From a bacterium (lineage in GTDB: Bacteria; Pseudomonadota; Gammaproteobacteria; GCA-002705445; GCA-002716945), in assembly GCA_029979505.1 (NCBI GenBank), contig JAPOHH010000003.1, positions 8,635 to 72,634 of the forward strand: a DNA stretch of 64,000 nucleotides, read 5' to 3'. A program made the translations under genes and the position numbers. The notes beneath the pieces were generated by a model. It did no database searches. It was given only the letters and a program-made list of their open reading frames with translations, and was not told where the DNA came from. Below are positions 27,391 through 64,000 of this stretch, in pieces; within the stretch, counting starts at the first letter, position 1, and each line of letters begins with the position of its first letter.

Positions 27391-27393
27391 AAC

Positions 27394-27466
27394 TAGGGCG
27401 TACAGGATTCGAACCTGTGACAAATGGCTTAAAAGGCCACTGCTCTACCAACTGAGCTAACGCCCC
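27394..27466 (-). tRNA. tRNA-Lys (anticodon UUU)
   Basis: 73 nt with a 7-bp acceptor stem and discriminator A. D arm UAGCUCAGUUGGUAGAGCA; anticodon loop CUUUUAA; T arm CAGGUUCGAAUCCUG. Near-identical to canonical bacterial tRNA-Lys. Confidence 0.9.
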
Positions 27467-27473
27467 AAATATA

Positions 27474-28673
27474 CTATATTTTCTCAAGAGTTCTAATTTT
27501 CTCAGGTAATACTTTTAAATCTATCAAAGAATTTTTGACGAGTTCAAAAAAAGTACTATCTTCATATACTGCTCTATAATACTCGATTTTCATCATTAAT
27601 GAAGCTCCGAATATAATTGATATCAATGTAATTATAGATCCTAATGCAAGTGTAGAAACACCAGTTACTCCTTGACCAATTGTGCATCCTAGTGAGAGAA
27701 CACCTCCTATACCAATTAACACTGCTCCCAAAAGATGTCTGAAGAAATCATGTTTATTTGCAAACCATTCTATTCTTAGATTATTACTAACTAATGCATA
27801 AACAAATGACCCAAACACAGTCGAAATAAGTGCAGTAACACCAAATGTTAAATAGAAACTATCGAATATGCTTGATGAATATATCAAAAATTCACCCATT
27901 GGATTAATAAAGGTAAATGACTGAACTCCAACCGATGGATATGGTGTGTCTAGGAAATCATTATTTTCAATCCAATTCTGTCCAAGTTCGCCACCTGATA
28001 TAAGCCATGCTAATGTAACAACTAATCCAACAACAAATCCAGATAAGATATTATCAGATGAAAGCTTTGAATATGATGAAAATATATACTTCAATAGAAA
28101 TATGCTTATTAAAGCAGGCAAAAAGAGTGTAATTATCATGTTACTTGAGTCTATCCCTGTAAGGGATGCTAACATAGTGTGGAGAGACTGATCTGAAATA
28201 CCTAATTTAGCTAAATCAGGACTGATGGGATTCATCCAACTGTGAAATAAAAGCCCATAAAAATCTGTTCTAGTCATTAATAAGGCCATTAATCCAGCTA
28301 TAATTAAAACGAATACAGATTTAATGTTTCCTCCCCCTATTCTGATTAAAATTTTATTGCCGCACCCACTTGCTAGTGTCATACCAATTCCAAACATGAT
28401 TCCACCAAGTATGTACCTCGGCCAAAAAAATACGGAATTTCTGTACGGGATTCTTGACTCATCTATATCTACGATACTCATATACTCAAGTAGTGTAACT
28501 CCAACAATTGCAGTAGTAATTGCAAGAAGCCATGCTTTAAATCTTGAACTATCTCCAATATTAACTAAATCTGAGACAGCCCCCATAGTACAGAAATTTG
28601 TTTTATTAACAACGTACCCAAGTATAAACCCTAATACAGATGTGTAAATTAATAGTGTAGTAATGATATCCAT
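27474..28673 (-). CDS. YeeE/YedE family transporter (thiosulfate/sulfur-compound uptake)
   Basis: 399 aa polytopic membrane protein with duplicated halves, each carrying a conserved Cys-containing loop (GCGNK / GCTIGQG). Stop codon lies 8 nt upstream of tRNA-Lys. Confidence 0.7.
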   Translation of the reverse strand: MDIITTLLIYTSVLGFILGYVVNKTNFCTMGAVSDLVNIGDSSRFKAWLLAITTAIVGVTLLEYMSIVDIDESRIPYRNSVFFWPRYILGGIMFGIGMTLASGCGNKILIRIGGGNIKSVFVLIIAGLMALLMTRTDFYGLLFHSWMNPISPDLAKLGISDQSLHTMLASLTGIDSSNMIITLFLPALISIFLLKYIFSSYSKLSSDNILSGFVVGLVVTLAWLISGGELGQNWIENNDFLDTPYPSVGVQSFTFINPMGEFLIYSSSIFDSFYLTFGVTALISTVFGSFVYALVSNNLRIEWFANKHDFFRHLLGAVLIGIGGVLSLGCTIGQGVTGVSTLALGSIITLISIIFGASLMMKIEYYRAVYEDSTFFELVKNSLIDLKVLPEKIRTLEKI

Positions 28674-43767: not shown

Positions 43768-44667
43768 TTAAAAAGTACTTATTCCTGCTATACCGAAACC
43801 ATAATTCTCTATCGATAATTTATAGTCCTCTCCTTTTGATGATATTCCCCCGAGAGCATATGTTGGAACGTAGGATTCTTTGCTTAATTTAGCAAAACCC
43901 TCCCAATCAATAATTTTATAGTTACTGTGCGTTTGTTTAACAGGTGAGACCAATATAAAATCATAAAGTTTTTCATTACATGATTTTATATCATCTATTG
44001 TGTGACATGATGCTGAATGAATTAGCGGTGAATCAGATTTATTTATAATAAGTTTATCTATGTAATTACTTGAATAGTGAATTCCATCAAATGAGTCGTC
44101 CCACTCATTTGAGTATTGATAATCTATTATTAATTTACCTGAGTATCTTTGAGATATTAATGTGTTTTTTATATTATTAACATAATAGTTATAATCTATC
44201 CCTCTTAATCGAATAGCTCCATAACATGAGAAGTTTATGTAATGATTTTTTTCAAAACTATCTACCGTAAGTATCTTTAATAGTCTAGGGAGATTTAGTA
44301 GTCTAAGAATCCTATTATGAGTTGGCAAGATAGACATAGTTTTATCTGAACTATACTTTACTATCTTTCTATTCTCTCTAGATTTAATTTTTCCAATATA
44401 TTTGAATATTTTATAAATGTTTATTTTAATTAATATATCGCCATACAAGTGTTTTATACAACCAAGATAATTATATTTTTTAATTCTAATATCTAGCTCT
44501 TCATAAATTTCTCTTTCTAGACATTTATCAGGTGTTTCTGATTGATTAGATTTTCCACCTGGAAATTCGATATGTCCTTTATAAGGAAACTTATTCCTCT
44601 GTAAACATATATATTTTGAATTATCGCTAATTAAAGCAATTGATATTTCAATTTCATTAAAACCCAT
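43768..44667 (-). CDS. Nudix hydrolase (MutT-like) fused to ThiE/TenI-like domain
   Basis: 299 aa. N-terminal Nudix box GHIEFPGGKSNQSETPDKCLEREIYEELDI. C-terminal TMP-synthase-like fold ending ...YALGGIS. Confidence 0.7.
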   Translation of the reverse strand: MGFNEIEISIALISDNSKYICLQRNKFPYKGHIEFPGGKSNQSETPDKCLEREIYEELDIRIKKYNYLGCIKHLYGDILIKINIYKIFKYIGKIKSRENRKIVKYSSDKTMSILPTHNRILRLLNLPRLLKILTVDSFEKNHYINFSCYGAIRLRGIDYNYYVNNIKNTLISQRYSGKLIIDYQYSNEWDDSFDGIHYSSNYIDKLIINKSDSPLIHSASCHTIDDIKSCNEKLYDFILVSPVKQTHSNYKIIDWEGFAKLSKESYVPTYALGGISSKGEDYKLSIENYGFGIAGISTF

Positions 44668-48429: not shown

Positions 48430-48744
48430 ATGGTTTATCATACAATAAATAGAGGTTTTATGAAAAAAATATCCGATTTTATACCTGATAAAGTAATTAA
48501 AAAGAAAGAGAATATTGATGAACTCAACAGTATACTCAAAAGTAATATAGATATTGAGGTTGTAGATAAAATTGACGTGATAAATTTTTCAGATTCCTCA
48601 ATAATCATAGAATGCGAAAATAGCTCTGTTGCATCTATCATCAAGTTTGAAAGAGAGAAATACATACAAATATTCAAAAATTACGGTATGTATAATATTC
48701 AGGATTTAAAAGTAAAAATTAAAATGCCTCAGCAGCCTGAGTGA
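48430..48744 (+). CDS. DUF721-domain protein (DciA-like)
   Basis: 104 aa. [32 protein letters not shown]...IQDLKVKI follows the DUF721 pattern (dgtLlVeVdSsaWaqELsflk..il..lne..G...vkdIrfrv). A DUF721 gene often sits between lpxC and secA in gammaproteobacteria. Start may be at 48460. Confidence 0.45.
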
Positions 48745-49627
48745 ATAGTATAGGAGATTTAGATTCATCTTCTATAATTACTTGTTCCCAAGCACTTTCA
48801 TTATTAACTAATTCTCTTAATAAAAGATTATTAAGATGGTGACCCGATTTATATGCTGAGAATGAGCCTATTAAACTATGTCCGAGCAAATAAAGATCGC
48901 CAATCGCATCAAGAATTTTATGCTTCACAAATTCATCTTTATATCTCAGTCCATCTTCATTAATAATTTTATAGTCATCAATTACAATCGCATTATTTAC
49001 ACTACCACCAAGTGCAAGATTATTTTTTCTTAAATTTTCAATATCTTTAGCAAAACCAAATGTTCTAGCTCTACTTACTTGGCTTAAGTAAGATATTGTT
49101 GAGAAGTCAATAGTTGAATTTTGAGTTTCTCTAGGAAACGAAGGATGATCAAAGTCTATAGTAAAAGAAACCTTAAAGCCATTGTATGGTTCTATTTTAG
49201 CCCATTTATCATTCTGTTTAACTTCAATATCTTTAATTATTTTTATGAATCGTTTGGGATGGTTTTGTTCACATATTCCAGCAGATTGAATTAAAAAAAC
49301 AAAAGGACGTGAACTTCCATCCATTATAGGTACTTCAGGTCCATCAAGCTCTATTACTGCATTATCAATTCCTAAACCTGCTAAAGCAGAAAGTAAATGT
49401 TCAACCGTAGATACTGATGATTCTGCTGAAGATATAGTTGTTGATAATCTAGTATCATGAACATTGTTTAATGAAGCAGATATTGGTGAATCTGAAATAT
49501 CTTTCCTGACAAAGACAATGCCTTTATCTGGTTGACCAGGATTAATTCTTAGATTTATTTTTCTACCAGTATGTAGACCAACTCCAGTTGCTGTAATACT
49601 GCTTGCCAAAGTTCTTTGTTTTAACAT
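48719..49627 (-). CDS. lpxC: UDP-3-O-acyl-N-acetylglucosamine deacetylase
   Basis: 302 aa. Conserved N-terminal [21 protein letters not shown]. Confidence 0.9.
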
Positions 49628-49690
49628 ATCGAAATATTACCAAATAGTTATAAATGTTACAAATATAGATTATTAGACCATATCTAGACG

Positions 49691-50935
49691 TTAAAGTTCT
49701 TTTTGGAAGTAATTAGAGAGCTTTCTGGTGAATTTGTTGATTAAATTAGCAATTTTAGACGGATATTTATTAGATGAAGATAGGTTTTTCAATTTCTTCT
49801 CTCTGTAAAGTAAAAGCCCAACTGCTGTAGAATACCGTGTTTTTCCCCTTAAATCTTCGAGCCCTTTAATACTTTTTGGAGAACCTATTCTCGATGGTGT
49901 CTTAAAAAATGATTCCGCATGATTATCAAGACCATCAAGTTTGGCTCCACCTCCTGTAAATACCAAGCCCGCACGTATCTTACTTGCATAACCGCTGTCA
50001 TGAATTTCTTTTTGTATAGCATCAAATATTTCATTTATCCTGGCTGTGATAATTTGTGACACTATTGTTTTACTAGTTTCAGTATCAGGCTTATCTGAAA
50101 CAGATGGGACAGGAATTTTCAAATTCATGTCTTCATCAGATGACACACATCCATATTGAATTTTTATTTCTTCCGCAGCCTCTAATGATGTACATAATAT
50201 TATTCTGATATCATTTGTTATCATTTGACTACCTATGGGAATAACAGCAGTGTGTTTAATCGTACCCTCAGTAAAAATAGCAACATCAGTCGTGCCACAG
50301 CCTATATCAATTAAACATACACCGAGATCTCTCTCCTCATCTGATAAAACAGCTTCACTGGATGCAACAGGTTGTAGTACAAAATGATCAATCTCTAGAA
50401 GACTATTATTAATACATTTTGTTAAATTTCTTTTTGCTGTAGAAGATGTAGTAATGATATGAACGTTAGCTTCGAGTCTACCTCCAGCCATACCTTTTGG
50501 TTCCCTTATACCTGTTTGACCATCAATGGTATAGTACTGATCTATGACATGGAGTATTTCTTGATCTTTAGGTATTTGGATGTTCTGAGCATTAGCAATT
50601 ACTTTTTCTTTATCCTCTTCTGTCACCTCATCATTCATTATGTTCACAGCACCATTACCGTTATAACTTTGAATGTGATTACCTGCGATACCAGTAGTTA
50701 CAGACTCAATATTGCAACTAGACATGCTGCTTGCTTTTTCTTTAGCACGTCTTACACTTGATACAGTAGCATCAATTTCTGAGATAACACCCTTATTTAG
50801 ACCTGTGCAAGGTTCATTTCCAATGCCTATAATTCTAAGCTCACCCTTATCATCAATATCAGCTACTAGACAGAGCACTTTAGATGTGCCAATGTCAAGA
50901 GCTACAAGAGTATCAGTACTTTTTATAGTATTCAT
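49691..50935 (-). CDS. ftsA: cell division protein FtsA
   Basis: 414 aa actin-like ATPase with phosphate-1 motif ALDIGTSKV. Confidence 0.9.
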   Translation of the reverse strand: MNTIKSTDTLVALDIGTSKVLCLVADIDDKGELRIIGIGNEPCTGLNKGVISEIDATVSSVRRAKEKASSMSSCNIESVTTGIAGNHIQSYNGNGAVNIMNDEVTEEDKEKVIANAQNIQIPKDQEILHVIDQYYTIDGQTGIREPKGMAGGRLEANVHIITTSSTAKRNLTKCINNSLLEIDHFVLQPVASSEAVLSDEERDLGVCLIDIGCGTTDVAIFTEGTIKHTAVIPIGSQMITNDIRIILCTSLEAAEEIKIQYGCVSSDEDMNLKIPVPSVSDKPDTETSKTIVSQIITARINEIFDAIQKEIHDSGYASKIRAGLVFTGGGAKLDGLDNHAESFFKTPSRIGSPKSIKGLEDLRGKTRYSTAVGLLLYREKKLKNLSSSNKYPSKIANLINKFTRKLSNYFQKEL

Positions 50936-50963: not shown

Positions 50964-51608
50964 CTATTTGATAGCAAAACCATTGGAATATCTCATATCA
51001 ATTGAAGTAATTTTTTTTCTATGTACTCTAGATATTTCATCAAACGACAAGATTAATCTTTTTATATTTTTATTAAAGTTAGACCTATCAGAAATAAGTG
51101 TTAGAGAATCAGTATATATTCTGATCAATGAATGAAATATTTCTATCTTATTAATCTTAAGATTAATCATACTTAACTGTTCCTGTGAAAAAACGAATAC
51201 ATTATTAGAAAAAGTGACATCATTATAGTGATCAACTATAATTGGCAGCTTGTACGTATACTCCTTGATATCGATTAAGCTTCCATTGCTAGTCAATATT
51301 TTATTATCGTACTTGGCGATAGGTTTATGATGGAATATTCTAATTTCAAGTGTGGATGGAAATGATTTTTTTATCTCTGCATGTCTAATCTGATTATCAG
51401 ACATTATATTCTTTTGAATAATATCAATATCTGTAAGTAGTAAGTCATTTCCGTATAGCGAACTAATTAACTTATTTAATCTGGCTTCATTATAGTTTTT
51501 TTCAGAAGAAATTATCTTCACTTCATTTATGGGAAAAGAGATGATTCCAGATTTATATGTAATTACTAAAATAAGAGCTACAATTATAGAAACTATTATT
51601 CTGGACAT
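50964..51608 (-). CDS. ftsQ: cell division protein FtsQ
   Basis: 214 aa. N-terminal TM followed by a POTRA-like region. Positioned between ddl and ftsA. Confidence 0.7.
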   Translation of the reverse strand: MSRIIVSIIVALILVITYKSGIISFPINEVKIISSEKNYNEARLNKLISSLYGNDLLLTDIDIIQKNIMSDNQIRHAEIKKSFPSTLEIRIFHHKPIAKYDNKILTSNGSLIDIKEYTYKLPIIVDHYNDVTFSNNVFVFSQEQLSMINLKINKIEIFHSLIRIYTDSLTLISDRSNFNKNIKRLILSFDEISRVHRKKITSIDMRYSNGFAIK

Positions 51609-52507
51609 AAATCTAAAATATTTAGTATCAACTGATAATAATCTATACCGTCTTTTATTGCAGCTTTTGGCACAAGACTGTGGTCAGTCATTCCTGGTAT
51701 CGTATTCAACTCTAATAAAATAATCTCATCAGCCTTTATAAAGAAGTCTACTCTACCCCATGTATCACAACCAATAATATTAAATGCATTTAAAATAGTA
51801 TTATTTATCGAAGCTGCTAACTCATTGTTTATTTTTGGAAAAGTAAATTCTGTAAGATTAGACGCATATTTAGCATCGTAATCATAAAAGTCATTGCCTG
51901 GCTTAATTTTAATTATAGGAAGTAATTGATTATGAAGAATTGCAGCCGTATATTCATCAGCAGAAATCTTTTCTTCAATTATAAATTGACGCTTTTTATC
52001 ATAATTATTAAGGAAATAACTAAATTCATTTGAATTAGATATTAAAAATATATTATTGCTTGAACCTGAACATGTATCTTTTATAAAAAAATGATCACCA
52101 TATTCTTTATAACAATAATTGTAATCTTGTGATTCATATATTTCATATTTTGGAATTATAAATCCATTCTGTTCCCATATTATTTTGGTATCGTATTTAT
52201 TAAATGATATTTTTGATGATTTCGCATCTGAACCACAATACTCAACTGATAGTTTATCGAGATATTTTTGAACTGTCCCATCTTCACCGCCCTCGCCATG
52301 AATTAGATTAAAAACCAAATCTATAGAGTTATCCCTAACTACTTTTTTTAAGTTTTCAAATGAATCTACCGACATGTCATAGAAGATAACATCATGTCCA
52401 TTTTGCTTGAGACAATTATAAACATCATTAGAGCTTTTAAGAGATATTAATCTTTCATTTGACCATCCTCCACCTAGAATACAAATTTTTGGTTCTCTAT
52501 ACCTCAT
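51596..52507 (-). CDS. ddl: D-alanine--D-alanine ligase
   Basis: 303 aa ATP-grasp enzyme. Confidence 0.85.
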   Translation of the reverse strand: MRYREPKICILGGGWSNERLISLKSSNDVYNCLKQNGHDVIFYDMSVDSFENLKKVVRDNSIDLVFNLIHGEGGEDGTVQKYLDKLSVEYCGSDAKSSKISFNKYDTKIIWEQNGFIIPKYEIYESQDYNYCYKEYGDHFFIKDTCSGSSNNIFLISNSNEFSYFLNNYDKKRQFIIEEKISADEYTAAILHNQLLPIIKIKPGNDFYDYDAKYASNLTEFTFPKINNELAASINNTILNAFNIIGCDTWGRVDFFIKADEIILLELNTIPGMTDHSLVPKAAIKDGIDYYQLILNILDLCPE

Positions 52508-53337
52508 TTTACTAGAATAACCTCTTCTTGAAGATGAATGTTATATTTAGAAAAAACTCTCTTTTTCACAATTTTCATAAGCTGTAGAAATTCATTATAT
52601 GTACCAGAACCATCATTAATGAAATAATTAGAATGTTTTCTTGAAATATAAATTCCTCCTACTCTCATTCCTTTTAGTTCAGCTCCTTCTATTAATTTTG
52701 CTGCATAATCATCTTTAGGATTTTTAAAAATACATCCACATGAGAGCTGATTTATAGGTTGTGTATTTTTTCGGATGATATTTAGTTTGCTAAGCAAATT
52801 CTTGTTAAATTCTTTTACCTGATTATATAACGTAACTGAAATGATACTAGAATTTTTATCAATGTTAGATGTTCTGTAACTATAATTTAAGTCCTTATTT
52901 TTCATTTCATAAATTTTACCCTTATTATTTACTAGCTCTATACTGTGTACGTGTTGAAGAAGCTCGTCATTGAATGCTCCAGCATTCATAAATATTGCCC
53001 CTCCCATGGAGCCAGGTATACCATAAAGAAACTCAAAACCTGATATTTTATTTTTATATAAATATCTAGATGCTTTATTACATGAAATATTACTTGAACA
53101 GTAAATGAAATTAGTATCATGTGTGATAAATCTTTTCATTCTTTTTAAACTAATTATTGTTCCATCATAATAATCAGTAATAAAACAAATATTAGATCCA
53201 TTTCCAATGTACATATGCTTATGAGATTTATTTATTTTTAACAAATCATCAATTGATGAGGGACAAATAAATTCCTTGCATGTGCCACCAAGACCAATTG
53301 TTGTTATATTTTTGAGAGGATAATTATTTTGAATCAT
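52504..53337 (-). CDS. murB: UDP-N-acetylenolpyruvoylglucosamine reductase
   Basis: 277 aa, short-form MurB. FAD-binding GLGGTCKEF motif. Confidence 0.8.
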   Translation of the reverse strand: MIQNNYPLKNITTIGLGGTCKEFICPSSIDDLLKINKSHKHMYIGNGSNICFITDYYDGTIISLKRMKRFITHDTNFIYCSSNISCNKASRYLYKNKISGFEFLYGIPGSMGGAIFMNAGAFNDELLQHVHSIELVNNKGKIYEMKNKDLNYSYRTSNIDKNSSIISVTLYNQVKEFNKNLLSKLNIIRKNTQPINQLSCGCIFKNPKDDYAAKLIEGAELKGMRVGGIYISRKHSNYFINDGSGTYNEFLQLMKIVKKRVFSKYNIHLQEEVILVK

Positions 53338-54712
53338 TATGAAGTAAATTTATAATATTTCTTATATCGCCTGCTCCCTGTAGGAGTAAAACAGTATCTT
53401 TATCAATGAGTTGCTCAATTGTTTTTTTTACACTTCGTAATGATTTAATATAAATCTTACTGTTAACTTTTATTTTATTATATAAGAACTCCGAGTCATA
53501 TGATGTTCTTTTTTCCCCTGCAGAATATGTAGGCAAAAGTATAACTTTGTCTGTAACATTCAATACTTTAACCATCTCTCTCCAGGAGGATTTTGTTCTT
53601 GAATAGCGATGTGGTTGAAATACAATTAAGATTTTTTTGTTAGGATGAATGTCTTTGATGGTAACTATAGTTGATTTAATTTCAGAGGGATGATGTCCAT
53701 AATCATCAATTGTAAGTACATTATTATTATTAATAGAAATATCTTTATGTACATCAAACCTTCTAGAAACTCCATGAAAAGTTACAATAGACTTAATAAC
53801 CCTTGATAGTTTAATACCTATATGAATACAGACAGCTATTGCTGTTAATATATTATAAATATTATGCTTACCTAGAAGCCTGGTTGATACTAAATATGTC
53901 TTTCGATTGTAATGAATTGTAAATTTCATCATATGAGCACTACATAATATGTCAGTTGCATATAAATCATTATTTTTCTTAAATCCAAAAGTAAAAATAT
54001 TTCGATTAATATTTTTAGTGAGATGTAAAGAATTTTTATCATCACCATTGATGAAAACTTTTCCATAGAAAGGAATTGATTTTATAAATTCACGCATGCA
54101 GGAAATTAAATTTCTGAAAGAATTATTATAATTCTCTAGATGTTCTGCATCCAGATTAGTTATCGCAACAAGATGAGGTTTTAACTTTGTAAAATCTGGG
54201 TTACTCTCATCAGTTTCGGTTATTAGATAACTACTATTTCCTAGCTTGACATGAGGATCGTCTGTTTTGAGCATACCTCCAATCAAATATGTTGGATCCA
54301 AATGGTTTTTATGGAGTATATGACTCAATAAACTTGTGGTAGTTGTTTTCCCATGTGAACCAGTAATACTAATGCCATATTTTAATCTCATTAATTCAGA
54401 TAATATCTCCATACGAGAGAGTATAGTCATGCTATTAGCTCTAGCAAATTTCATTTCGATATTATTTTTTTTAATCGCATTAGAAAAAATTATAATATCG
54501 TTATTATTAATATTTTTTGGGTTATGGCCTATATGTACCTTTATCTTTAGCTTTCGCAATCTTTTTACAGACAAGGTATCTTTGATATCTGAGCCATGTA
54601 CTGAGAATCCTAAGTTATATAACAATTCTGCTATACCCATCATTCCAGCACCACCAATTCCAATTAAGTAAAATGATTTATTTTTAAGATGCTGTGTTAT
54701 GGAGTTTTTCAT
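53324..54712 (-). CDS. murC: UDP-N-acetylmuramate--L-alanine ligase
   Basis: 462 aa. GIGGAGMMGIAE and GSHGKTTT motifs. Confidence 0.9.
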   Translation of the reverse strand: MKNSITQHLKNKSFYLIGIGGAGMMGIAELLYNLGFSVHGSDIKDTLSVKRLRKLKIKVHIGHNPKNINNNDIIIFSNAIKKNNIEMKFARANSMTILSRMEILSELMRLKYGISITGSHGKTTTTSLLSHILHKNHLDPTYLIGGMLKTDDPHVKLGNSSYLITETDESNPDFTKLKPHLVAITNLDAEHLENYNNSFRNLISCMREFIKSIPFYGKVFINGDDKNSLHLTKNINRNIFTFGFKKNNDLYATDILCSAHMMKFTIHYNRKTYLVSTRLLGKHNIYNILTAIAVCIHIGIKLSRVIKSIVTFHGVSRRFDVHKDISINNNNVLTIDDYGHHPSEIKSTIVTIKDIHPNKKILIVFQPHRYSRTKSSWREMVKVLNVTDKVILLPTYSAGEKRTSYDSEFLYNKIKVNSKIYIKSLRSVKKTIEQLIDKDTVLLLQGAGDIRNIINLLHNDSK

Positions 54713-55778
54713 GCAATTCCGGAATATTTTGTAAGATTATATCACTAGAATCATTTGGAAAAAGAGATTTAACATTATTTGCCATTTTATATAATTCATT
54801 CTTATTTAATAAAAGGTGTTTGATAGTAATATTCAAATTTTCTTTAAATTTATTATCCTCTTGTATTATCACTGCCGCGTGATTTTCATGCAAATACCTT
54901 GCATTGATTAGTTGATGATTATCAGTTGCGTATAGGTAAGGAATTAAAATAGATGCTCTACCAGAACTTGATATCTCACTCAATGTCATTGATCCCGACC
55001 GTGAAATGATTAAATCAGACCATTCATAGAGAATTTCCATCTCATATGAAAACTCAATTACATCAACTTGGACTCCATATTTTTTATATTGTTCCTCAAG
55101 TTTATTTTTATTATTCATACCAGAAATATGCTTTATATTAATTGAATCGGAAAAGTGCAAAAAACATTCAGGGATATTTTCATTGAAAAATTTAGCTCCT
55201 TGACTTCCTCCAAAAATCAGGATGTTTATCTTTTGATTTTTTTCTTTATACTTTTGGTCAGGACCTGTTATGTTTTTAAATTTTTTTTTAAGTGGATTGC
55301 CAGATAATATAACTTTTGACTTTTTTTGAAATGTATTTGGAAATGTTTCAAATGTCCTCTTTGTAATTAAATTATTAATTTTATTCGCTGAACCAGCAAT
55401 TGAATTCGATTCATGAGCATACACTGGCAAGCGATATAAAAATCCAGCTAAACTTACAGAAGAACTTACATAACCTCCGAATCCTAATATGAAAATAGGT
55501 TTATTAGAAATTATAATTTTAAGACTTTGGAATATAGATTTCATAAAATTTAGTAGTCCTTTAATTTTATTTATGAAGTTTTTTCCTCTAATACCTGTTG
55601 ATGTTATATGTATTAATTTAATTTTTTTATTTTTTATTAATTTATTTTCGATACCATTCTTTGTTCCAATCCAAATAACATCGTAACCTTTTATTAATAA
55701 TAATTCAGAAATATTCAAAGCAGGTATTACATGACCGCCAGTTCCACTTGATGCTATTATTATTTTTTTATTGATCAT
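54684..55778 (-). CDS. murG: UDP-GlcNAc:undecaprenyl-PP-MurNAc-pentapeptide GlcNAc transferase
   Basis: 364 aa GT28 enzyme with SGTGGHVIPAL motif. Confidence 0.85.
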   Translation of the reverse strand: MINKKIIIASSGTGGHVIPALNISELLLIKGYDVIWIGTKNGIENKLIKNKKIKLIHITSTGIRGKNFINKIKGLLNFMKSIFQSLKIIISNKPIFILGFGGYVSSSVSLAGFLYRLPVYAHESNSIAGSANKINNLITKRTFETFPNTFQKKSKVILSGNPLKKKFKNITGPDQKYKEKNQKINILIFGGSQGAKFFNENIPECFLHFSDSINIKHISGMNNKNKLEEQYKKYGVQVDVIEFSYEMEILYEWSDLIISRSGSMTLSEISSSGRASILIPYLYATDNHQLINARYLHENHAAVIIQEDNKFKENLNITIKHLLLNKNELYKMANNVKSLFPNDSSDIILQNIPELHEKLHNTAS

Positions 55779-56926
55779 ATGCTTCTATGAACTGCTTGAC
55801 TATGTGTTTGTTTCCTTTCAATTTGTATTCTAATTAGAATACCAATATACGTGAACATAAGAAGAAGGTTTGTACCACCATAGCTTATAAAAGGGAGTCC
55901 CATCCCTTTCGTAGGGAATAAACCAATATTGACTAACACATGTATTATGGTTTGTATCATCATTAATAGTATGATACTTAAAACTAGGTTTGATGAAAAC
56001 TCTGAAATCTTACGAGTACTACCATAGAAAATGAACATTCGCCAAAAAAGAACGACATATAGCAATAAAATAAAGATAAGGAAAATAAAACCAAGTTCTT
56101 CTCCAATGATAGCTAATATAAAATCATTGTACTGTTCAGGTAAATAAAATAATTTCTGCATGCTTGAACCCAAGCCTTGTCCAAAATAGCCTCCAGAAGA
56201 TAATGCTATTTGTGATGCAATAATTTGGTAACCACTTCCTTGTGGATCATTCCATGGGTTTATGAATGCAAGAAATCTTTGAACTCTATAAGGATATAAG
56301 ATAATTAGCAAAATAATTGGGATAATTGCAATTAAAGATACTCTCAATAAATGAGATAGTAGAACATTTGATATAAATGAATATATTAAAAATGTTGTGA
56401 ATAGTAATATCATACTTCCGAAATCTCTTTGTAAAACAATAATAAACATTAGTGTTGATGCAAAGACGAAGATCTTAAAAAAATCTTTATTGAAGTTATT
56501 TCGTACAATATATCCAGACAACCAAATAAAGAACAATAATCTTGATACTTCTGATACTTGTAAAGTAAAAAATCCAAGATTAATCCATCTGGTTGCCCCA
56601 TTTATAGTAACACCTACTCCAGGTATGTGAACTAGAAGGGATAGAAGCAAAGATAATAATAAAAAGAATTGGCTGTAATCATAGTAAAACTTTATTTTAA
56701 TATGCGTAACTATATAAAGAACAAATAAACCTAAAATTATAAATAATAATTGTTTCTTAAAAAAGAATAACGGATTTGAGAATTTAGTTGCAGCAAAATC
56801 TACAGTGGATGAAGTTACCATAACTAGTCCGATTATTATAAGACTTGTAACGCAAGCTAAGAAAAGTGAATCGAGACCTCTATTATCAAAAAAATCGAAA
56901 GTATTTTTAAACTTTTTTATTAGCAT
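55775..56926 (-). CDS. ftsW: peptidoglycan glycosyltransferase FtsW
   Basis: 383 aa, predicted 10-TM SEDS protein. Confidence 0.85.
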   Translation of the reverse strand: MLIKKFKNTFDFFDNRGLDSLFLACVTSLIIIGLVMVTSSTVDFAATKFSNPLFFFKKQLLFIILGLFVLYIVTHIKIKFYYDYSQFFLLLSLLLSLLVHIPGVGVTINGATRWINLGFFTLQVSEVSRLLFFIWLSGYIVRNNFNKDFFKIFVFASTLMFIIVLQRDFGSMILLFTTFLIYSFISNVLLSHLLRVSLIAIIPIILLIILYPYRVQRFLAFINPWNDPQGSGYQIIASQIALSSGGYFGQGLGSSMQKLFYLPEQYNDFILAIIGEELGFIFLIFILLLYVVLFWRMFIFYGSTRKISEFSSNLVLSIILLMMIQTIIHVLVNIGLFPTKGMGLPFISYGGTNLLLMFTYIGILIRIQIERKQTHSQAVHRSI

Positions 56927-58193
56927 AATAATTTACAAGATTTTTAAAGTGATCACCTCTTTGCTCAAAGTTTTTATAATGAGAGAAACTAGATGTGCCT
57001 GGCGAAAAAAGAATGGTTGTTTTTTCTCTAAAATCAGAAAATATATATGAAACAACTTCTTTTAGATTATTGAAAAATATTGTTTCAATATCTGGTATTA
57101 TTGCATTGTATATATCTTGTCTATTGTCACCAAATAATATAAGTAACTTTACTTTGTTATTAATTATTCCGGATAGCACGGAATAAGAAATATTTTTTTT
57201 ATCACCTCCCATAATCAAAGTTATGTTGTTTGAAATTGATTCAAGAGCATTTAGTGTTGAATTAGCATTAGTTGATTTTGAGTCATTAATAAATTTTGTA
57301 TTTTTGTAGCTATAAAAGCTCTCTAGCCTATGTGGTAATATTGAGCGCTTTGAAAAACCAATTAATGAGTCACTTAATTTAATACCTATTATTTTTAAAA
57401 CTGCTAAACAAGCACATAGGTTTAGGGCTTCATGTTTACCATTAATTTTGAAAATTCTTCCATTGAAGTTTATAGAATTATAATCCATTAATGAAATGCC
57501 ATTTATAATTTCTCCATTAATAAGAAAATTATTATTATGAACATTAAATGTATAGGATTTTTTTGGAGCTCCTATATCAGCATTAATAATTGAATTAATG
57601 GCGCCATTGAATATCTTAAGCTTGATGTCTAAGTACTCTTGCAAGGAGTTATGCCTGTCTAGATGGTCTTCAGAGATATTTAGTACTATTGAAATAAATG
57701 AATTTAAGTTTTGTATGTATTCTAACTGATAGCTTGAAAGCTCGATTATTACGTAACTGTAATCTTCCTCAAGAGCTTTAAAGAGTGAAACACCATTATT
57801 TCCGCATGCAATTGCTTTTTGATTATTATTATTTAAGATATCTGCAAGTAGATTCACTGTTGATGTTTTTCCATTAGTACCAGTAACACAAATATATTTA
57901 GCTTTTAATTGATGTTGGAGAAGCTCTACATCTGTTATAAATTTACAATCAAGATCAAGTAGTTGTTCCACATAATAATTTTGTTTTTTAATACCTGGAC
58001 TTATTACAATATAGTCGAAACTTTTGATATTTATCTTGCCAGATGTGGTCGAGATATTAACATTATCAATGTGCAAAATATCTTCAGTATTTATCGCTTG
58101 ATAAGTAATTGATTTTTTGTCAAAAAATACTCTACAGTTATTATAAGTTACGCCTTTACCAAGTATAAGAAACGACGACTTAGATAAGTTCAT
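56907..58193 (-). CDS. murD: UDP-N-acetylmuramoylalanine--D-glutamate ligase
   Basis: The ILGKGVTY N-motif places the likely start at 58193, forming an ATGA overlap with the mraY stop. The ORF-track start at 58247 would overlap mraY by 58 nt. Confidence 0.85.
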   Translation of the reverse strand: MNLSKSSFLILGKGVTYNNCRVFFDKKSITYQAINTEDILHIDNVNISTTSGKINIKSFDYIVISPGIKKQNYYVEQLLDLDCKFITDVELLQHQLKAKYICVTGTNGKTSTVNLLADILNNNNQKAIACGNNGVSLFKALEEDYSYVIIELSSYQLEYIQNLNSFISIVLNISEDHLDRHNSLQEYLDIKLKIFNGAINSIINADIGAPKKSYTFNVHNNNFLINGEIINGISLMDYNSINFNGRIFKINGKHEALNLCACLAVLKIIGIKLSDSLIGFSKRSILPHRLESFYSYKNTKFINDSKSTNANSTLNALESISNNITLIMGGDKKNISYSVLSGIINNKVKLLILFGDNRQDIYNAIIPDIETIFFNNLKEVVSYIFSDFREKTTILFSPGTSSFSHYKNFEQRGDHFKNLVNYYANKKV

Positions 58194-59275
58194 CTTATTT
58201 TTAAAGTAGATAATGCTATCAACACAAGTATGAATGTTACTATCCAAAATCTCATGATTATTTTAGGTTCAGATAATCCTGATAGCTCATAATGGTGATG
58301 TAAAGGTGCCATTTTAAATATTCTTTTCCCATTTCTCAGCTTAAATGAGAGAACTTGTAAAATGACAGATATGACTTCAGCTATAAAGATACCGCTCATA
58401 ATTGCAAATGCTAATTCTTGTTTTAGAATTATTGCTAACAACCCCAGAGAACTACCAAGAGATAATGATCCGCAGTCACCCATAAATATTTCAGCTGGGT
58501 AAGAATTAAACCATAAGAATCCTAAACCTGCACCCACCAATGATGCTGCAAATATTGCTATTTCTCCTGACCCTTCAATGTATGGTATAAGCAAATATTC
58601 AGAAATAATCACATTCCCATGCACGTATGAAAAAATAACAAATGCTGATGCGATCAAAATACAAGGCAATATAGCAAGTCCATCCAAACCATCTGTTAAA
58701 TTTACTGCATTCGACGAACCAACTAATATGAATATTGCCCAAGGTATAAAGAGGATTCCTAAATAAAAACTATTGTCTTTCATAAATGGAACAACAGATT
58801 CAATTGCACCCGTTTGCATATATGTATATAAAAATATTGTGATTAATGAGGCAATAACTATTTGAAAAAAAAGTTTTAATCTTCCTTTAATGCCATCACT
58901 ATTTTTTTTTATTAATTTTTTATAATCATCATAGAAACCTATTAGGCCAAATCCTAGAATCCCAAATAATAATACTAATATATAGTTATTGTTTAAATCT
59001 GACCACAATAATGTTGATATCACTACGGAAAATATAATTATTACGCCGCCCATTGTCGGAGTAGTATTTTTATCATCTAAATGACTTTTTGGTCCGTCTT
59101 CTCTTATAGATTGGTAAAATTGTTTATTTCTTAAATATGAGATAATAGCTGGGCCTAAAAGAAGTGAGATTACTAAAGCTGTGAGTGCACCCATAACTAT
59201 CCTAGTAGTTAAATATAAAAATGCATTAAACCCAGTATTATATTGAGTAAGATATTCAAAAAAAGCTAAAAGCAT
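58190..59275 (-). CDS. mraY: phospho-N-acetylmuramoyl-pentapeptide transferase
   Basis: 361 aa membrane transferase. Confidence 0.9.
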   Translation of the reverse strand: MLLAFFEYLTQYNTGFNAFLYLTTRIVMGALTALVISLLLGPAIISYLRNKQFYQSIREDGPKSHLDDKNTTPTMGGVIIIFSVVISTLLWSDLNNNYILVLLFGILGFGLIGFYDDYKKLIKKNSDGIKGRLKLFFQIVIASLITIFLYTYMQTGAIESVVPFMKDNSFYLGILFIPWAIFILVGSSNAVNLTDGLDGLAILPCILIASAFVIFSYVHGNVIISEYLLIPYIEGSGEIAIFAASLVGAGLGFLWFNSYPAEIFMGDCGSLSLGSSLGLLAIILKQELAFAIMSGIFIAEVISVILQVLSFKLRNGKRIFKMAPLHHHYELSGLSEPKIIMRFWIVTFILVLIALSTLKIR

Positions 59276-59277
59276 AG

Positions 59278-60609
59278 TTATTTAAGTTCCTGGGCAATAA
59301 TGTCAAAATTCATGAAACGAGATGCTTTTATCAAAATAGCAGATTGACTATTAGATGTATTTTTTATGTATTCAATTAGTTTATTCATATCATTTGAAGT
59401 ATAGCAATTCTTGCCAAATATTGATTTAGCATCTTTCATATATTTTCCCATATAAAATAAATACTTTATTCCTAATTCTTTTGATAATTTAAATATCATT
59501 AAATGACTTTCATATGATTTGTCTCCAAGCTCACCCATGTCTCCCATTACGAATAACTTTTCACGATCAATTTGTGAAAATTGGTTTAGAGCAGCTTTCA
59601 TAGATTCTGGATTTGCATTATAAGAATCATCAAAAACTATTGATTTATTTTTCGCAATAAATCTATAAAATCTACCCTTCACTCCTGCGAATGCTCCTAA
59701 GCCTTCAATTACATCACTTATACTTGCGCCAGATTCCATAGATATTGCAATACTAAACAAAATATTTATAGGTAATACATTCTGGATAGCTTTTTTATCT
59801 ACTTCAAAAGTATTTCCATAAGTAGATACCTCATAAGTATAATCAGAATATCGTCTCAGAACATAATCTGCATTACCGTGCAAAGAAATGGTTACAACAT
59901 TTTTATTAATATTAATATTTTTCCACTGTTGATAGTATTTGTCATCTAGATTTAAGATTACTGTTGTTGTGTTTGAATGTGAAAAAATCTCTTCTTTAGT
60001 TTTGATTAAATTGTCCATATTTATAAATGATTCCATATGTGCTTCAGATACATTTAATAGCGCTGTTAAATTTGGCTCAGATATTGACGTTAAATATTTG
60101 ATATCACCTAACTTGCTAGCTCCATGTTCATATATACATTTTTTTGTTTCTTTTGAAGCATTAAGTATAGATAGTGGCAAACCTATTTGATTATTATAAT
60201 TTCCTATAGTCGTACTCGTTTCAAAAGATGTTTTTAATATAGATTCACATAGTTGCGTAACTGTTGTTTTACCATTAGTGCCAGTTATAGCAATAGTATG
60301 GGGAGAGCCTATCTTGTTTTTATACTTTCTGGCTATTATCCCTAGTGCAAGAATTGTATCGTCAACACTAATAGTCGTTACCCTTCGATCATTTATAACA
60401 TGTGATTTATTGTAAACTATACACTTTGCTCCATTATCGATAGCATTTGTAATGAAGTCATGACCGTTATATGTTTGTCCAGGTAGTGCTAAAAATAAAT
60501 CTCCATCTGTAACGTCTCTGCTATCAATAACTATATTATTAATTGAGGTATCATCACCGGTATATGTGCTGGAAAGATAATTTGCTACATCTGATATTTT
60601 AAGATTCAT
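59278..60609 (-). CDS. murF: UDP-MurNAc-tripeptide--D-Ala-D-Ala ligase
   Basis: 443 aa Mur ligase with GTNGKTT motif. Confidence 0.85.
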   Translation of the reverse strand: MNLKISDVANYLSSTYTGDDTSINNIVIDSRDVTDGDLFLALPGQTYNGHDFITNAIDNGAKCIVYNKSHVINDRRVTTISVDDTILALGIIARKYKNKIGSPHTIAITGTNGKTTVTQLCESILKTSFETSTTIGNYNNQIGLPLSILNASKETKKCIYEHGASKLGDIKYLTSISEPNLTALLNVSEAHMESFINMDNLIKTKEEIFSHSNTTTVILNLDDKYYQQWKNININKNVVTISLHGNADYVLRRYSDYTYEVSTYGNTFEVDKKAIQNVLPINILFSIAISMESGASISDVIEGLGAFAGVKGRFYRFIAKNKSIVFDDSYNANPESMKAALNQFSQIDREKLFVMGDMGELGDKSYESHLMIFKLSKELGIKYLFYMGKYMKDAKSIFGKNCYTSNDMNKLIEYIKNTSNSQSAILIKASRFMNFDIIAQELK

Positions 60610-62062
60610 GTTTTTTAATTAGTAAATTTAAATAATTGATATCATTATGTCTTATTTTTTTATTTTTCTTCAAGATATAATCTTCATTACCTTTTCCTAA
60701 TATGAAATTTAAGCTTTCTTTATTTGATTTCTTAAATAAATATTTAATCGCTTTTTTACGTGATTCTATAACTATATAGTTGTTGTGATTAAATCCTGAT
60801 TTAATATCATCGAGTATCGAATAGAAATTTTCATCTCTTGAATTATCTTCAGTGATTATTGATAAAGAAGAATTACTTTCCACAGCTTTTGCTATATTTT
60901 TTCTTTTAGATTTATCTCTATCGCCCCCGCACCCAAACAGTGTTGTGATATTAGAATTTGAATGAAAATCATTATATATATCCTGAAAGGATTGTATTGT
61001 GTGAGCATAGTCAATTATAAATCTACCTCTTTCTTTTGTGTTAACTACTTGTCTTCTTCCGGGTAATGGTTTTAGATTATCTATTGCTTTTTGTATAGTA
61101 TTATTTTTGAAATCTTCAAGATGAAGAAGTGTGCAAATATTTAATAATGAATATATATTAAAACTAATAAAGTTATTCTTAGGAAGCTTAATGATTTTAT
61201 TTCTTATATATATATTTCCTATTTTATCGTCATAAGTTACTAAGCAATTATTTTTATTTTTAATATCATTAGATATAAGAATTTTTCTTGTCTTATCTTG
61301 TAATGATATTTCATTCATTAATATGTCAGAGTCTTTATTTAAAATAGTACATTTAGACTGTCGTATGATAGAAATCTTTGCTCTTGCATAGTTTTTAATA
61401 CTCTTATGATAATCCAAATGATCACTATAGATATTTGTTATAAATGAATAGTCAAAACATATCCCTTTAAGCCTCCCCTGGTCTAATCCTTGTGAAGAGC
61501 ATTCAATAATTACATAATCATATTTTTTTGATAAAAAATTAAAATAGTTTTTGTAGATAACATCAATTGGTGGCGTCGTATAATCATTTTTTTTCAATGA
61601 TGGATATAGACCTACCCCCTCACTAGATATAACACCTACATTTTTATTTAAATTTGTGAGTGATTCTGCTAGCAATAAAACTGTTGATGTTTTTCCGTTA
61701 GTTCCAGTTACACCGATAGTCTTAGTTTTAGAATTTAAGATTTTCAAATTATTTTGATATATCTTATAAAAACAATTTTCAAGATTTCTCTGAACAAAAA
61801 AAGGTATGGTACTATTTACTTGTTTTCTGGTAAATTGAAAAGCGGATATGTATCCATATGCACCATTTTTTATTGCGTCTTTAATATTTATGAGATTATT
61901 TTCCCGCCTTGTATCTAAAGAAATAAAAATTTGTCCAGAAACTATTTTCCTTGAGTCAATTGAAAACTTATCATAAATATTTTTAGATATCCTTCCATTT
62001 AATTTTATGAACTTCTCTAAAAGATTCAGATTAATAGTTTCTTGTGACATAGTTTTGATCAT
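60599..62062 (-). CDS. murE: UDP-MurNAc-L-Ala-D-Glu--2,6-diaminopimelate ligase
   Basis: 487 aa Mur ligase with GVTGTNGKTS motif. Confidence 0.85.
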   Translation of the reverse strand: MIKTMSQETINLNLLEKFIKLNGRISKNIYDKFSIDSRKIVSGQIFISLDTRRENNLINIKDAIKNGAYGYISAFQFTRKQVNSTIPFFVQRNLENCFYKIYQNNLKILNSKTKTIGVTGTNGKTSTVLLLAESLTNLNKNVGVISSEGVGLYPSLKKNDYTTPPIDVIYKNYFNFLSKKYDYVIIECSSQGLDQGRLKGICFDYSFITNIYSDHLDYHKSIKNYARAKISIIRQSKCTILNKDSDILMNEISLQDKTRKILISNDIKNKNNCLVTYDDKIGNIYIRNKIIKLPKNNFISFNIYSLLNICTLLHLEDFKNNTIQKAIDNLKPLPGRRQVVNTKERGRFIIDYAHTIQSFQDIYNDFHSNSNITTLFGCGGDRDKSKRKNIAKAVESNSSLSIITEDNSRDENFYSILDDIKSGFNHNNYIVIESRKKAIKYLFKKSNKESLNFILGKGNEDYILKKNKKIRHNDINYLNLLIKKHES

Positions 62063-63692
62063 TTAATATTCTCATGGAGTGTTGCATAAACTCACTAAAT
62101 ATTGGAGCAGCGTGTACACCTCCAGATCCCTCTCGATTTTGCGGGTTTCTGACAATTACTGCAGCAACATACTTTGGTTCTGGGTCGCCCAATATGCCAA
62201 TAAAAAGAGCATTATGTCTATTTTTAACGTATTCGCCATCAATCAGCTGTCTGACAGTACCTGTCTTACCATATACCGTATAACCTTGAACAGCAGCTTT
62301 TCTCCCAGTACCATCTTTGGAATGAACAACTTCTTTCATCATAGTTAGAACTTTTTTTGATTTTTTATAATCAAGAATACTTTCTTTATTATTTTTATTT
62401 GAATTATTTAAATAATTTATGCTAACTCTCTCTCCATAATTAGCCAATGTAGTATATGCGCTAGCTAGATGCATCAGAGACATTGAAAGTCCATAACCAT
62501 ATCCAAGACTCATATGACTTGATTCTGATAAATTAGATGCGATAGGTAGAGTACCATTCTTTGATCCCGGTAAATTCAAAAATAGTGATTGTCCAAATCC
62601 AAATTTATTCAATCCATCTATAAGTTGTTTTTTTGATAATTTACTTGATATTTTAGCTGCTCCAATATTACTTGATAGGCGAATTATATCTGTTGGATTA
62701 ATTGATCCTAAATACTTCCAATCTTTAATTTCCTTATCTTCCAGTTTTATCACACCAGGAGCAGTATCAATAATTGTGTATTCATCAATAATTTTATGAT
62801 TCAGAGCTGTGTATATTATGAGCGGTTTTATTGTGGAACCTGGTTCTATCAAATCATATACAGCTCTATTTTTGATATTTTTGCCTTTAAATTGACTTCT
62901 TTTTTCAGGATTAAAAGAAGGATAATTAACCATAGATAATATATCTCCTGTATTTGATTCAATCAAAATAATTGAACCACTCTCTGCATTGAATTTATGG
63001 ATATATTTTCTTAGAATTTCATACCCAATAATTTGCACTCTTTTGTCAATTGTTAGAGAAATATCTTTTCCAGATTGAGATTTTTTTATTATCTCGATTG
63101 TTTCAATAGGTCGACCAATATTGTCTTGTTTTACTTTTTTTAAACCCCTAACAGGTGAGAGTATATCATTATTTATTAATTCTATTCCCTCTTGCCCTTT
63201 ATCATCTATGTCTGTAAATCCAATGACATTTGAAAATGATTCGCCACCAAGATATGATCTCTTATTTTCATTAATAAAATAGATGTAAGGATTTTTTAAC
63301 TTTTTAACTTTATTATAGACTTGTTTAGATACATGTCTTTTTACATACAATTCTTTTTTATTTTTATTTTTTAGTATTATAGAATTTATTTTTTTTTCAG
63401 ATATATTCAATTCTCTCGCAAGCATTGTTATTGATTTATCATAATTTCTATATAATTTACTTGGATTAATACATAGTGTTTTTGATGGTAAGGACATGGC
63501 CAAAATATCATTATTTCTATCATAGATACTACCTCTTTGTGCTGATATCTTTACCAAATGTATTTGTCTTTTTTTTGCCTCATCCAAAATATTTTCTTTG
63601 CAAACTTCTCCATTAAAATAAAAACAATCTGTTGCTTTTATTTGAATGAAGTAAAGTCTTAATAGAATAATAAAAAAAACAAAAAAGGCCAC
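62031..63692 (-). CDS. ftsI: peptidoglycan D,D-transpeptidase FtsI (PBP3)
   Basis: 553 aa. N-terminal TM, a PBP dimerisation domain and a transpeptidase with STIKP and SxN/KTG motifs. Confidence 0.85.
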   Translation of the reverse strand: MAFFVFFIILLRLYFIQIKATDCFYFNGEVCKENILDEAKKRQIHLVKISAQRGSIYDRNNDILAMSLPSKTLCINPSKLYRNYDKSITMLARELNISEKKINSIILKNKNKKELYVKRHVSKQVYNKVKKLKNPYIYFINENKRSYLGGESFSNVIGFTDIDDKGQEGIELINNDILSPVRGLKKVKQDNIGRPIETIEIIKKSQSGKDISLTIDKRVQIIGYEILRKYIHKFNAESGSIILIESNTGDILSMVNYPSFNPEKRSQFKGKNIKNRAVYDLIEPGSTIKPLIIYTALNHKIIDEYTIIDTAPGVIKLEDKEIKDWKYLGSINPTDIIRLSSNIGAAKISSKLSKKQLIDGLNKFGFGQSLFLNLPGSKNGTLPIASNLSESSHMSLGYGYGLSMSLMHLASAYTTLANYGERVSINYLNNSNKNNKESILDYKKSKKVLTMMKEVVHSKDGTGRKAAVQGYTVYGKTGTVRQLIDGEYVKNRHNALFIGILGDPEPKYVAAVIVRNPQNREGSGGVHAAPIFSEFMQHSMRILNDQNYVTRNY

Positions 63693-63738
63693 TGCTATGA
63701 ATAACAGTAGCCTTAGCTTGTCATTTCTTTTTGTATTA

Positions 63739-64000
63739 TTAATCAGCTTGCTGTCTTAAAAAAGCTGGTATATCAATAGACGTTTGTTCTTCAGGTTGAA
63801 TGCTATTAACATTCGGTGCTGCGTCTATGTTAGATACAATATTATTATTTACTGTTTGTCCCAGGTTAGTATGCTCGTTTTGATTACTAACAGTATCAGG
63901 ATTAACTTCTTGTGTAGCATTATTTTGAGCAAATCCTGTTGCAATTATAGTTACACGTAAGTCGCCAATATTATCATCTTCTTTTATGCAACCTGTAATT
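63739..64000 (-). CDS. ftsZ: cell division protein FtsZ, C-terminal fragment (gene continues beyond window end)
   Basis: Hand translation of the minus strand gives ...GDLRVTIIATGF-(N/Q-rich linker)-SIQPEEQTSIDIPAFLRQQAD, then tandem stops TAA TAA. IRVTVIATGF and the terminal DIPAFLRKQAD peptide are diagnostic of FtsZ. It is absent from the ORF track because its start lies outside the window. Confidence 0.85.
   Translation of the reverse strand, partial: ITGCIKEDDNIGDLRVTIIATGFAQNNATQEVNPDTVSNQNEHTNLGQTVNNNIVSNIDAAPNVNSIQPEEQTSIDIPAFLRQQAD

Follow-up and report, generated by a model that had tools for sequence, protein, structure and literature searches.

The dcw cluster is among the most conserved gene arrangements of bacteria, and its ftsA-ftsZ pair is usually taken as a fixed end. 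In the E. coli type of cluster the genes mraZ, rsmH, ftsL, ftsI, murE, murF, mraY, murD, ftsW, murG, murC, ddlB, ftsQ, ftsA and ftsZ follow one another, and then comes lpxC. In the window (the whole stretch of 64,000 nucleotides analysed here, with a GC content of 30.6%) the minus strand reads ftsQ-ftsA-lpxC with only 63 bp between the last two genes, which raises the question of what has become of ftsZ in this organism. An earlier note on the same DNA had described this order and this gap; both were borne out by the ORF listing and by Pfam, and the gap is non-coding, without any FtsZ-like ORF. The same note took ftsZ between ftsA and lpxC to be the usual gammaproteobacterial state, which agrees with 62 of 62 outgroup loci from other Gammaproteobacteria (FtsZ identity <=55%): all have the canonical order ddl-(ftsQ)-ftsA-ftsZ-lpxC-secA-argJ, with ftsA preceding ftsZ in the 60 loci that reach that far and lpxC following it in the 59 that do so. 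The absence of ftsZ that it describes is correct for the slot between ftsA and lpxC, and a wider absence, which it seems to imply, is incorrect for the window and the cluster, as the 3' end of the gene is found at the edge of the window, between ftsL and ftsI. In the papers searched, ftsZ is given as the last gene of the dcw cluster, and ftsA/ftsZ loss is mentioned for Chlamydiae and Planctomycetes only (PMC8871954).

The sole significant tblastn match to E. coli FtsZ in the window lies at 63742-63963 on the minus strand (E=5e-4). The matching frame runs past the window end and its translation closes with ...LRVTIIATGF...SIDIPAFLRQQAD*, which corresponds to the FtsZ C-terminal domain followed by the conserved FtsA-binding peptide. 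The gene has the same orientation as ftsA and lies about 12.8 kb upstream of it, at a separation of 11 genes (Table 1). The complete gene was obtained from L001, a metagenome contig found by an exact-protein look-up with the FtsI of the window, which is 99.9% identical to window positions 52031-64000 and reaches beyond the window end. On this contig the order is RNase P RNA, mraZ, a 64-aa J-domain ORF, rsmH, ftsL, ftsZ, ftsI, murE, murF, mraY, murD, ftsW, murG, murC, murB and ddl. Its ftsZ encodes 379 aa with the Tubulin (PF00091) and FtsZ_C (PF12327) domains, both of which are also precomputed for all of the 120 FtsZ homologues listed, and it carries the GGGTGTGAAP signature, the T7 loop MNVDFADV and the C-terminal peptide IDIPAFLRQQAD, whose positions are invariant in the homologue alignment. 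The ftsZ-ftsI junction is also present in three independent Logan assemblies. It is thus firmly established that ftsZ has moved within the dcw cluster with its orientation unchanged, and that it has not been lost.

Table 1. Coordinates in the window of the features at the two rearranged junctions of the dcw cluster
Feature	Position	Strand	Basis or remark
ftsZ 3' end, last 87 codons and TAA stop (63741-63739)	63739-64000	minus	tblastn, C-terminal peptide IDIPAFLRQQAD
Hairpin, 13-bp stem and 4-nt loop, then U-rich run	63685-63714	minus	terminator scan, folding, covariation
ftsI (PBP3)	62031-63746	minus	Pfam PBP_dimer and Transpeptidase; frame analysis
Genes parting ftsZ from ftsA: murE, murF, mraY, murD, ftsW, murG, murC, murB, ddl, ftsQ	50964-62062	minus	ORF list, Pfam
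ftsQ	50964-51608	minus	ORF list, Pfam
ftsA, intact, 414 aa, without Shine-Dalgarno	49691-50935	minus	Pfam FtsA and SHS2_FTSA
ftsA-lpxC spacer, 63 bp, non-coding	49628-49690	minus	sequence
GTCTAAT heptamer	49672-49678	minus	spacer comparison
-35-like TTGTAA	49657-49662	minus	spacer comparison
Extended -10 TG	49641-49642	minus	spacer comparison
-10-like TAATAT	49634-49639	minus	ends 6 nt before lpxC ATG
lpxC, directly 3' of ftsA, without Shine-Dalgarno	48719-49627	minus	Pfam LpxC E=1e-110

The genes at the head of the cluster deserve some comment of their own. An RNase P RNA gene is placed directly upstream of mraZ (L001 6472-6804, Rfam RF00010, 267 bits). The J-domain ORF between mraZ and rsmH (L001 7419-7613, DnaJ E=1e-15) stands alone, overlaps the start of rsmH and is found in the same place in 19 of 19 clade loci examined, which makes it an unusual additional member of the dcw cluster. 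Upstream of the cluster, L001 858-4638 encodes proteins with 4HFCP_synth, DUF447, DUF6513, Flavoprotein and NTP_transf_3 domains; such a gene set is typical of the synthesis of cofactors of the tetrahydromethanopterin/methanofuran type and hints at C1 metabolism.

The spread of this arrangement was assessed in a scan of one genome per GTDB species, which was seeded with clade-derived peptide patterns and is biased accordingly; it returned 80 loci, whose gene order was typed by tblastn with the proteins of the window. The order mraZ-rsmH-ftsL-ftsZ-ftsI-murE was found in all 18 species genomes with an FtsZ identity of 65-94%, all of them metagenome-assembled or single-cell genomes of uncultured marine Gammaproteobacteria with a GC content of 28-32%, and ftsZ is inserted between ftsL and ftsI in L001 and in L007-L024. 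The far end of the cluster in the divergent members was reached by a search with the MurB of L015 and then through the encoding contigs. Five loci (L087, L088, L089 (TMED257), L093 and L094) hold the ftsZ-ftsI and the ftsA-lpxC junction on a single contig each, in the order ftsZ-ftsI-murE-murF-mraY-murD-ftsW-murG-murB-ddl-ftsQ-ftsA-lpxC-dciA-secA-argJ-nudix/thiE-zapD-coaE and with a gap of 98-118 bp between ftsA and lpxC. The nearer relatives L090-L092 have ftsQ-ftsA-(61-65 bp)-lpxC. The comparison with relatives that the earlier note had called for hence finds the empty slot again in eight further clade loci, which cover both subclades. As both the ftsL-ftsZ-ftsI and the ftsA-lpxC order extend over the clade, the relocation is an ancestral and fixed character: it took place in the ancestor of an uncultured, AT-rich clade of marine planktonic Gammaproteobacteria and has been retained since. 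The 90% cluster of its FtsZ has 547 members and that of its LpxC 577, and such hundreds of metagenome sequences, nearly identical to one another, indicate a very high abundance of this lineage in the ocean.

Compared with the canonical dcw cluster, the gene set is the same, the genes are co-oriented and their order is alike except for ftsZ, and the flanking genes lpxC-dciA-secA-argJ-nudix-zapD-coaE match those of the outgroup Gammaproteobacteria. The differences are the position of ftsZ between ftsL and ftsI, the J-domain ORF between mraZ and rsmH and the departure of murC in one subclade. It is therefore a dcw cluster in the broad sense of co-oriented mraZ, rsmH, fts and mur genes, in which the canonical ftsL-ftsI and ftsA-ftsZ-lpxC adjacencies are both absent. 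As to murC, in the distant subclade (L014-L020, L022, L087-L089, L093 and L094) murB comes directly after murG, so that murC lies outside the cluster, and the order murG-murC-murB is kept in the subclade of the window and in L021/L024; this is a second dcw rearrangement within the same lineage. In L092 (a contig of about 1.04 Mb whose name indicates polishing with Pilon) the ddl, ftsQ, lpxC and secA calls are split or truncated, most likely through sequencing frameshifts rather than because these are pseudogenes. Beyond lpxC, the interval up to secA has on its opposite strand a weak DciA-like ORF (48430-48744, plus strand, 104 aa, E=5e-4, under the Pfam cut-off), which shares 26 nt with the 3' end of lpxC; throughout the clade, ORFs of 88-100 aa occupy the same position. 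Downstream of argJ, a fused protein with NUDIX (MutT-like) and TMP-TENI (ThiE-like) domains is encoded at 43768-44667 on the minus strand, and this fusion is also kept across the clade.

An identical end state would result from insertion and loss, if an ftsZ had been horizontally acquired next to ftsL at the head of the cluster and the native copy beside ftsA had then been deleted. This origin is unlikely. FtsZ identity does drop sharply, from at least 65% inside the clade to at most 55% outside, but the 62 nearest non-clade matches are all gammaproteobacterial and none of them stands out (maximum 55%). Moreover, FtsA (maximum 48.5%) and LpxC (maximum 65%) are similarly distant from the same outgroups, so that a long vertical branch fits, as far as can be judged by identities to outgroups, and the C-terminal FtsA-binding peptide is of the gammaproteobacterial type. 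The whole explanation preferred here, namely an ancestral relocation within the cluster together with the re-wiring of expression that we infer below, is considered highly probable.

The ratio of FtsZ to FtsA is critical for division. In E. coli, promoters inside ddlB-ftsQ-ftsA feed ftsZ, and lpxC (envA) has a separate promoter in the ftsZ-lpxC gap. The two systems are alike in the strong ribosome-binding site of ftsZ and in the (here predicted) promoter that lpxC has immediately upstream, and they are unlike in that ddl, ftsQ and ftsA here come after ftsZ, which prevents promoters within these genes from feeding it. The suggestion of the earlier note that the balance of ftsA and ftsZ is set up differently in this organism is upheld, since with ftsZ no longer beside ftsA the balance must be set in another way. 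No conserved promoter-like site was found within 450 nt upstream of ftsZ (the best position was shared by 5 of 16 clade loci), for which the simplest reading is transcription from the region between the RNase P RNA gene and mraZ. At both junctions, scans for consensus promoters and terminators gave no more matches than shuffled sequence and flagged the hairpin described below, and no Rfam family was found at the ftsL-ftsZ-ftsI or the ftsA-lpxC junction. It is suggested that ftsZ would be promoter-proximal and transcribed with mraZ-rsmH-ftsL from the upstream promoter of the cluster.

The translation signals of ftsZ are more distinctive. In the lineage of the window the ftsL stop overlaps the full Shine-Dalgarno sequence of ftsZ (cat TAG GAGG aacacc ATG), and in the other subclade the ftsL-ftsZ junction reads TAA acc GGAGGT ... 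ATG. When pairing with the anti-Shine-Dalgarno was computed, ftsZ ranked first of the 67 genes of the window and L001 with -10.2 kcal/mol, against -1.5 for ftsA, -2.8 for lpxC and +0.4 kcal/mol for ftsQ, most genes being essentially without a Shine-Dalgarno sequence. Across 19 clade loci the value for ftsZ was -10.0 to -10.8 kcal/mol. The outgroup median is -8.8 kcal/mol; as the site is also strong in the outgroups it was inherited and is not an adaptation to the new position. Nevertheless, an AGGAGG sequence overlapping the ftsL stop would be expected to give a high FtsZ output, with ftsA placed 12.8 kb downstream and devoid of such a site. The FtsZ:FtsA ratio may consequently be set by operon position, by Shine-Dalgarno strength and by the hairpin that follows ftsZ.

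This hairpin begins 24 nt past the ftsZ stop, inside the 5' coding part of ftsI. It folds with -24.9 kcal/mol (z = -5.55 against shuffles) and is the most stable 40-nt fold of the window on either strand (-18.1 kcal/mol, where the mean of such folds is -3.2 kcal/mol with a standard deviation of 2.4). A hairpin of -14 to -23 kcal/mol is present at the same place in 24 of 24 clade loci (21 distinct sequences) with differing stem sequences. When 20 sequences were aligned without gaps, 86% of the cells were paired and both partners had changed in 10 of the 14 pairs; the covariation score was 0.544, as compared with 0.26 in shuffles, and was reached by none of 500 of them. When the stem partner was slid, pairing fell to 35-59%. 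The U-run comes directly after the stem in the window, L001, L007 and L024; L008, L012 and L088 have it in a weak or displaced form. It doubles as coding sequence for a membrane helix rich in Phe, Ile and Leu. Because it is lineage-dependent and codes for a helix, the structure is not established as a classical intrinsic terminator.

Intercistronic hairpins are known to set differential expression within operons, either as partial intrinsic terminators or as stabilisers of 3' ends, as in the puf and malEFG operons. The present structure is alike in being a stable, conserved stem-loop that parts a gene of high demand from genes required at a low level, with a U-run in some lineages; it is unlike them in that it forms part of the coding sequence of ftsI, the gene downstream, and that its U-run is not conserved. 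The hairpin may be a transcription attenuator, a protector of the 3' end of the ftsZ mRNA or a control on ftsI translation. In any of these roles, that is by partial termination, by stabilising the ftsZ 3' end or by blocking the free loading of ribosomes, it would lower the expression of ftsI and of the genes downstream.

The start of ftsI is also uncommon. The GTG that mechanical calling assigns as its start (63692) is located midway through a predicted transmembrane helix, and upstream of it no stop interrupts the frame as far as the ftsZ stop codon in 21 of 21 distinct clade sequences, the frame being +1 relative to ftsZ in 19 of them and 0 in L021 and L024. The region concerned spans 63685-63746 on the minus strand of the window and 9952-10010 in L001. 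Shuffled ftsZ-ftsI spacers stay open 26-56% of the time each, and multiplying these values exaggerates the significance, since the clade sequences are related. The stretch between the ftsZ stop and the Arg ahead of the helix has a fixed length: it measures 25 nt for the near subclade and 31 nt for the majority of the distant one, where L094 has 27 nt, and the two frame 0 sequences have 30 or 33 nt. The N-terminal tail thus encoded is rich in Lys and Arg, as expected of a cytoplasmic tail. ATG, GTG and TTG codons before the helix are absent in 14 of the 19 sequences tallied, as well as in two that were added later; the tail of the other five does contain a conventional start in frame, either ATG or TTG. 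The ftsZ stop is overlapped by a near-cognate codon, CTG and/or ATT, in every sequence with frame +1 (19 of 19): the end of ftsZ, GCT GAT TAA, reads CTG ATT in the +1 frame, which in the window places CTG at 63746-63744 and ATT at 63743-63741. Two other candidates for the ftsI start, namely short upstream ORFs and an out-of-frame ATG/GTG-GAG-ACA, were rejected, as neither is conserved and both hit stop codons. Gene callers truncate ftsI of the clade genomes to 437-553 aa, compared with about 574 aa for the open frame. A further questionable start call elsewhere in the window concerns a 324-aa ORF (26513-27487, minus strand), whose mechanical TTG start overlaps tRNA-Lys (27393-27467), so that its true start must lie further downstream.

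Termination-reinitiation coupling and non-AUG starts are both known, the AUU of infC being an example of the latter. The ftsZ-ftsI junction resembles such systems in that the upstream stop overlaps a candidate downstream start and there is no Shine-Dalgarno sequence, and differs from them in that the candidate starts are ATT or CTG, with an availability that varies by lineage. Ribosomes ending at the ftsZ stop may therefore re-initiate on ftsI at the overlapping ATT or CTG, at a low level and coupled to ftsZ. Near-cognate re-initiation of this kind would tie the output of FtsI to a small fraction of that of FtsZ.

The continuity of the two frames, interrupted by nothing except the stop codon in 21 of 21 sequences, and the want of a canonical start in most of them would also suit a quite different arrangement, in which FtsI is a C-terminal extension of FtsZ made through a programmed recoding event (at the ftsZ stop, a shift into the +1 frame or, for two lineages, read-through) and yields a membrane-anchored FtsZ-FtsI fusion. 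A strong hairpin follows and the topology is permissible, the N-terminus of FtsI being cytoplasmic. However, the frame relation varies by lineage, with 19 sequences at +1 and L021 and L024 at 0, and a single recoding mechanism cannot serve both. In addition, a slippery motif is absent, the P-site codon GAU/GAC is unable to re-pair after a +1 shift, and an ordinary start (ATG or TTG, in frame) is available within the tail of five sequences. Recoding is for these reasons very improbable, and re-initiation, which would account for all the frame and start cases, appears much the likelier of the two.

A more ambitious form of the re-initiation model can be envisaged, in which the stoichiometry of division would be fixed by gene position together with a composite ftsZ-stop/ftsI-start module. 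The sole source of FtsI would be ribosomes coming directly from the completion of FtsZ, and near-cognate re-initiation at ATT or CTG before the hairpin would keep it at a fixed small fraction of FtsZ; in the extreme form, some FtsZ would be recoded into the membrane-anchored fusion. This is put forward tentatively and is more doubtful than the relocation with its re-wired expression. Furthermore, the relocation could be younger than both the hairpin and the non-canonical start of ftsI, which were compared within the clade.

The emptied slot between ftsA and lpxC, in a window that is AT-rich and superficially symbiont-like, might be taken for the trace of a genome that has lost ftsZ and divides without FtsZ, in the manner of Chlamydiae, Planctomycetes and a number of reduced symbionts. 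This reading has next to no likelihood, because the cluster itself contains an ftsZ that is intact, shows every hallmark motif and is conserved over the clade at an identity of 65-95%, and because full peptidoglycan synthesis and FtsA, FtsQ, FtsW, FtsI, FtsK and ZapD are encoded in the window. Equally implausible is an assembly or binning artefact at the ftsA-lpxC or the ftsL-ftsZ-ftsI junction, a misassembly having been named by the earlier note as what would overturn its observation: the source contig is of the metagenome type and the long-read relative L092 has frameshift errors, but the same junctions recur in many independent assemblies (ENA, JGI, NCBI and Logan), in three single-cell genomes and in contigs of up to about 1 Mb, and the five loci named above hold both on one contig.

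The relocation left lpxC beside ftsA, and a promoter in the residual spacer was one of the checks proposed in the earlier note; a conserved promoter-like element that might serve lpxC is indeed present. The spacers of the window, L090 and L092 have otherwise diverged and have in common the blocks GTCTAAT, TTGTAA and TTTGGTA(A/G)(T/A)AT. The last two form a sigma-70-type arrangement of TTGTAA, a 17-nt spacing and TA(A/G)(T/A)AT with an upstream TG, the footprint in the window being TTGTAA-17-TGgTAATAT. In the near subclade the -10 element ends 6-7 nt before the lpxC ATG, without a Shine-Dalgarno sequence, a distance that predicts a leaderless or near-leaderless lpxC mRNA; the lpxC mRNA of the window probably has no leader or a very short one. 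In the distant subclade (L087-L089) the candidate is TTGA(A/T)(A/T)-16-T(A/G)(A/G)AAT, 8-26 nt before the ATG, where the TGGAAT of L087 was read by eye and the scan gave only TTAACA-17-TAAAAT for that locus. A promoter-like site is found in 9 of the 9 spacers scanned, such hexamers being frequent by chance at 30% GC, and L091 is an exception among the near relatives, without the TTGTAA/TAGAAT arrangement. No terminator was predicted in the ftsA-lpxC spacer. The heptamer GTCTAAT lies 12-13 nt past the ftsA stop in 8 of 9 clade spacers (with the variants GTCTTAC, GTCTAAG and GTCTAAA), and GTCTAA was found in none of 59 outgroup ftsZ-lpxC spacers, which makes it a clade-specific motif. The outgroup gap has a median of 153 nt, often with TGTGATATTAT and a Shine-Dalgarno sequence. 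It is proposed that lpxC would be served by its own promoter in what remains of the spacer.

No earlier report of the ftsL-ftsZ-ftsI order was found in the literature searched, and a whole natural lineage in which ftsA and ftsZ are parted is a fresh variation on the known dcw cluster. For annotation, automatic callers shorten ftsI, and a search confined to the usual slot would lead to a false record of ftsZ as absent. For the organisms themselves, the lineage appears to set the levels of its division proteins by operon position, ribosome-binding strength, a hairpin and translational coupling, and not by internal promoters. It may in this way offer a natural experiment on how the ratios of division proteins are set in a streamlined genome.
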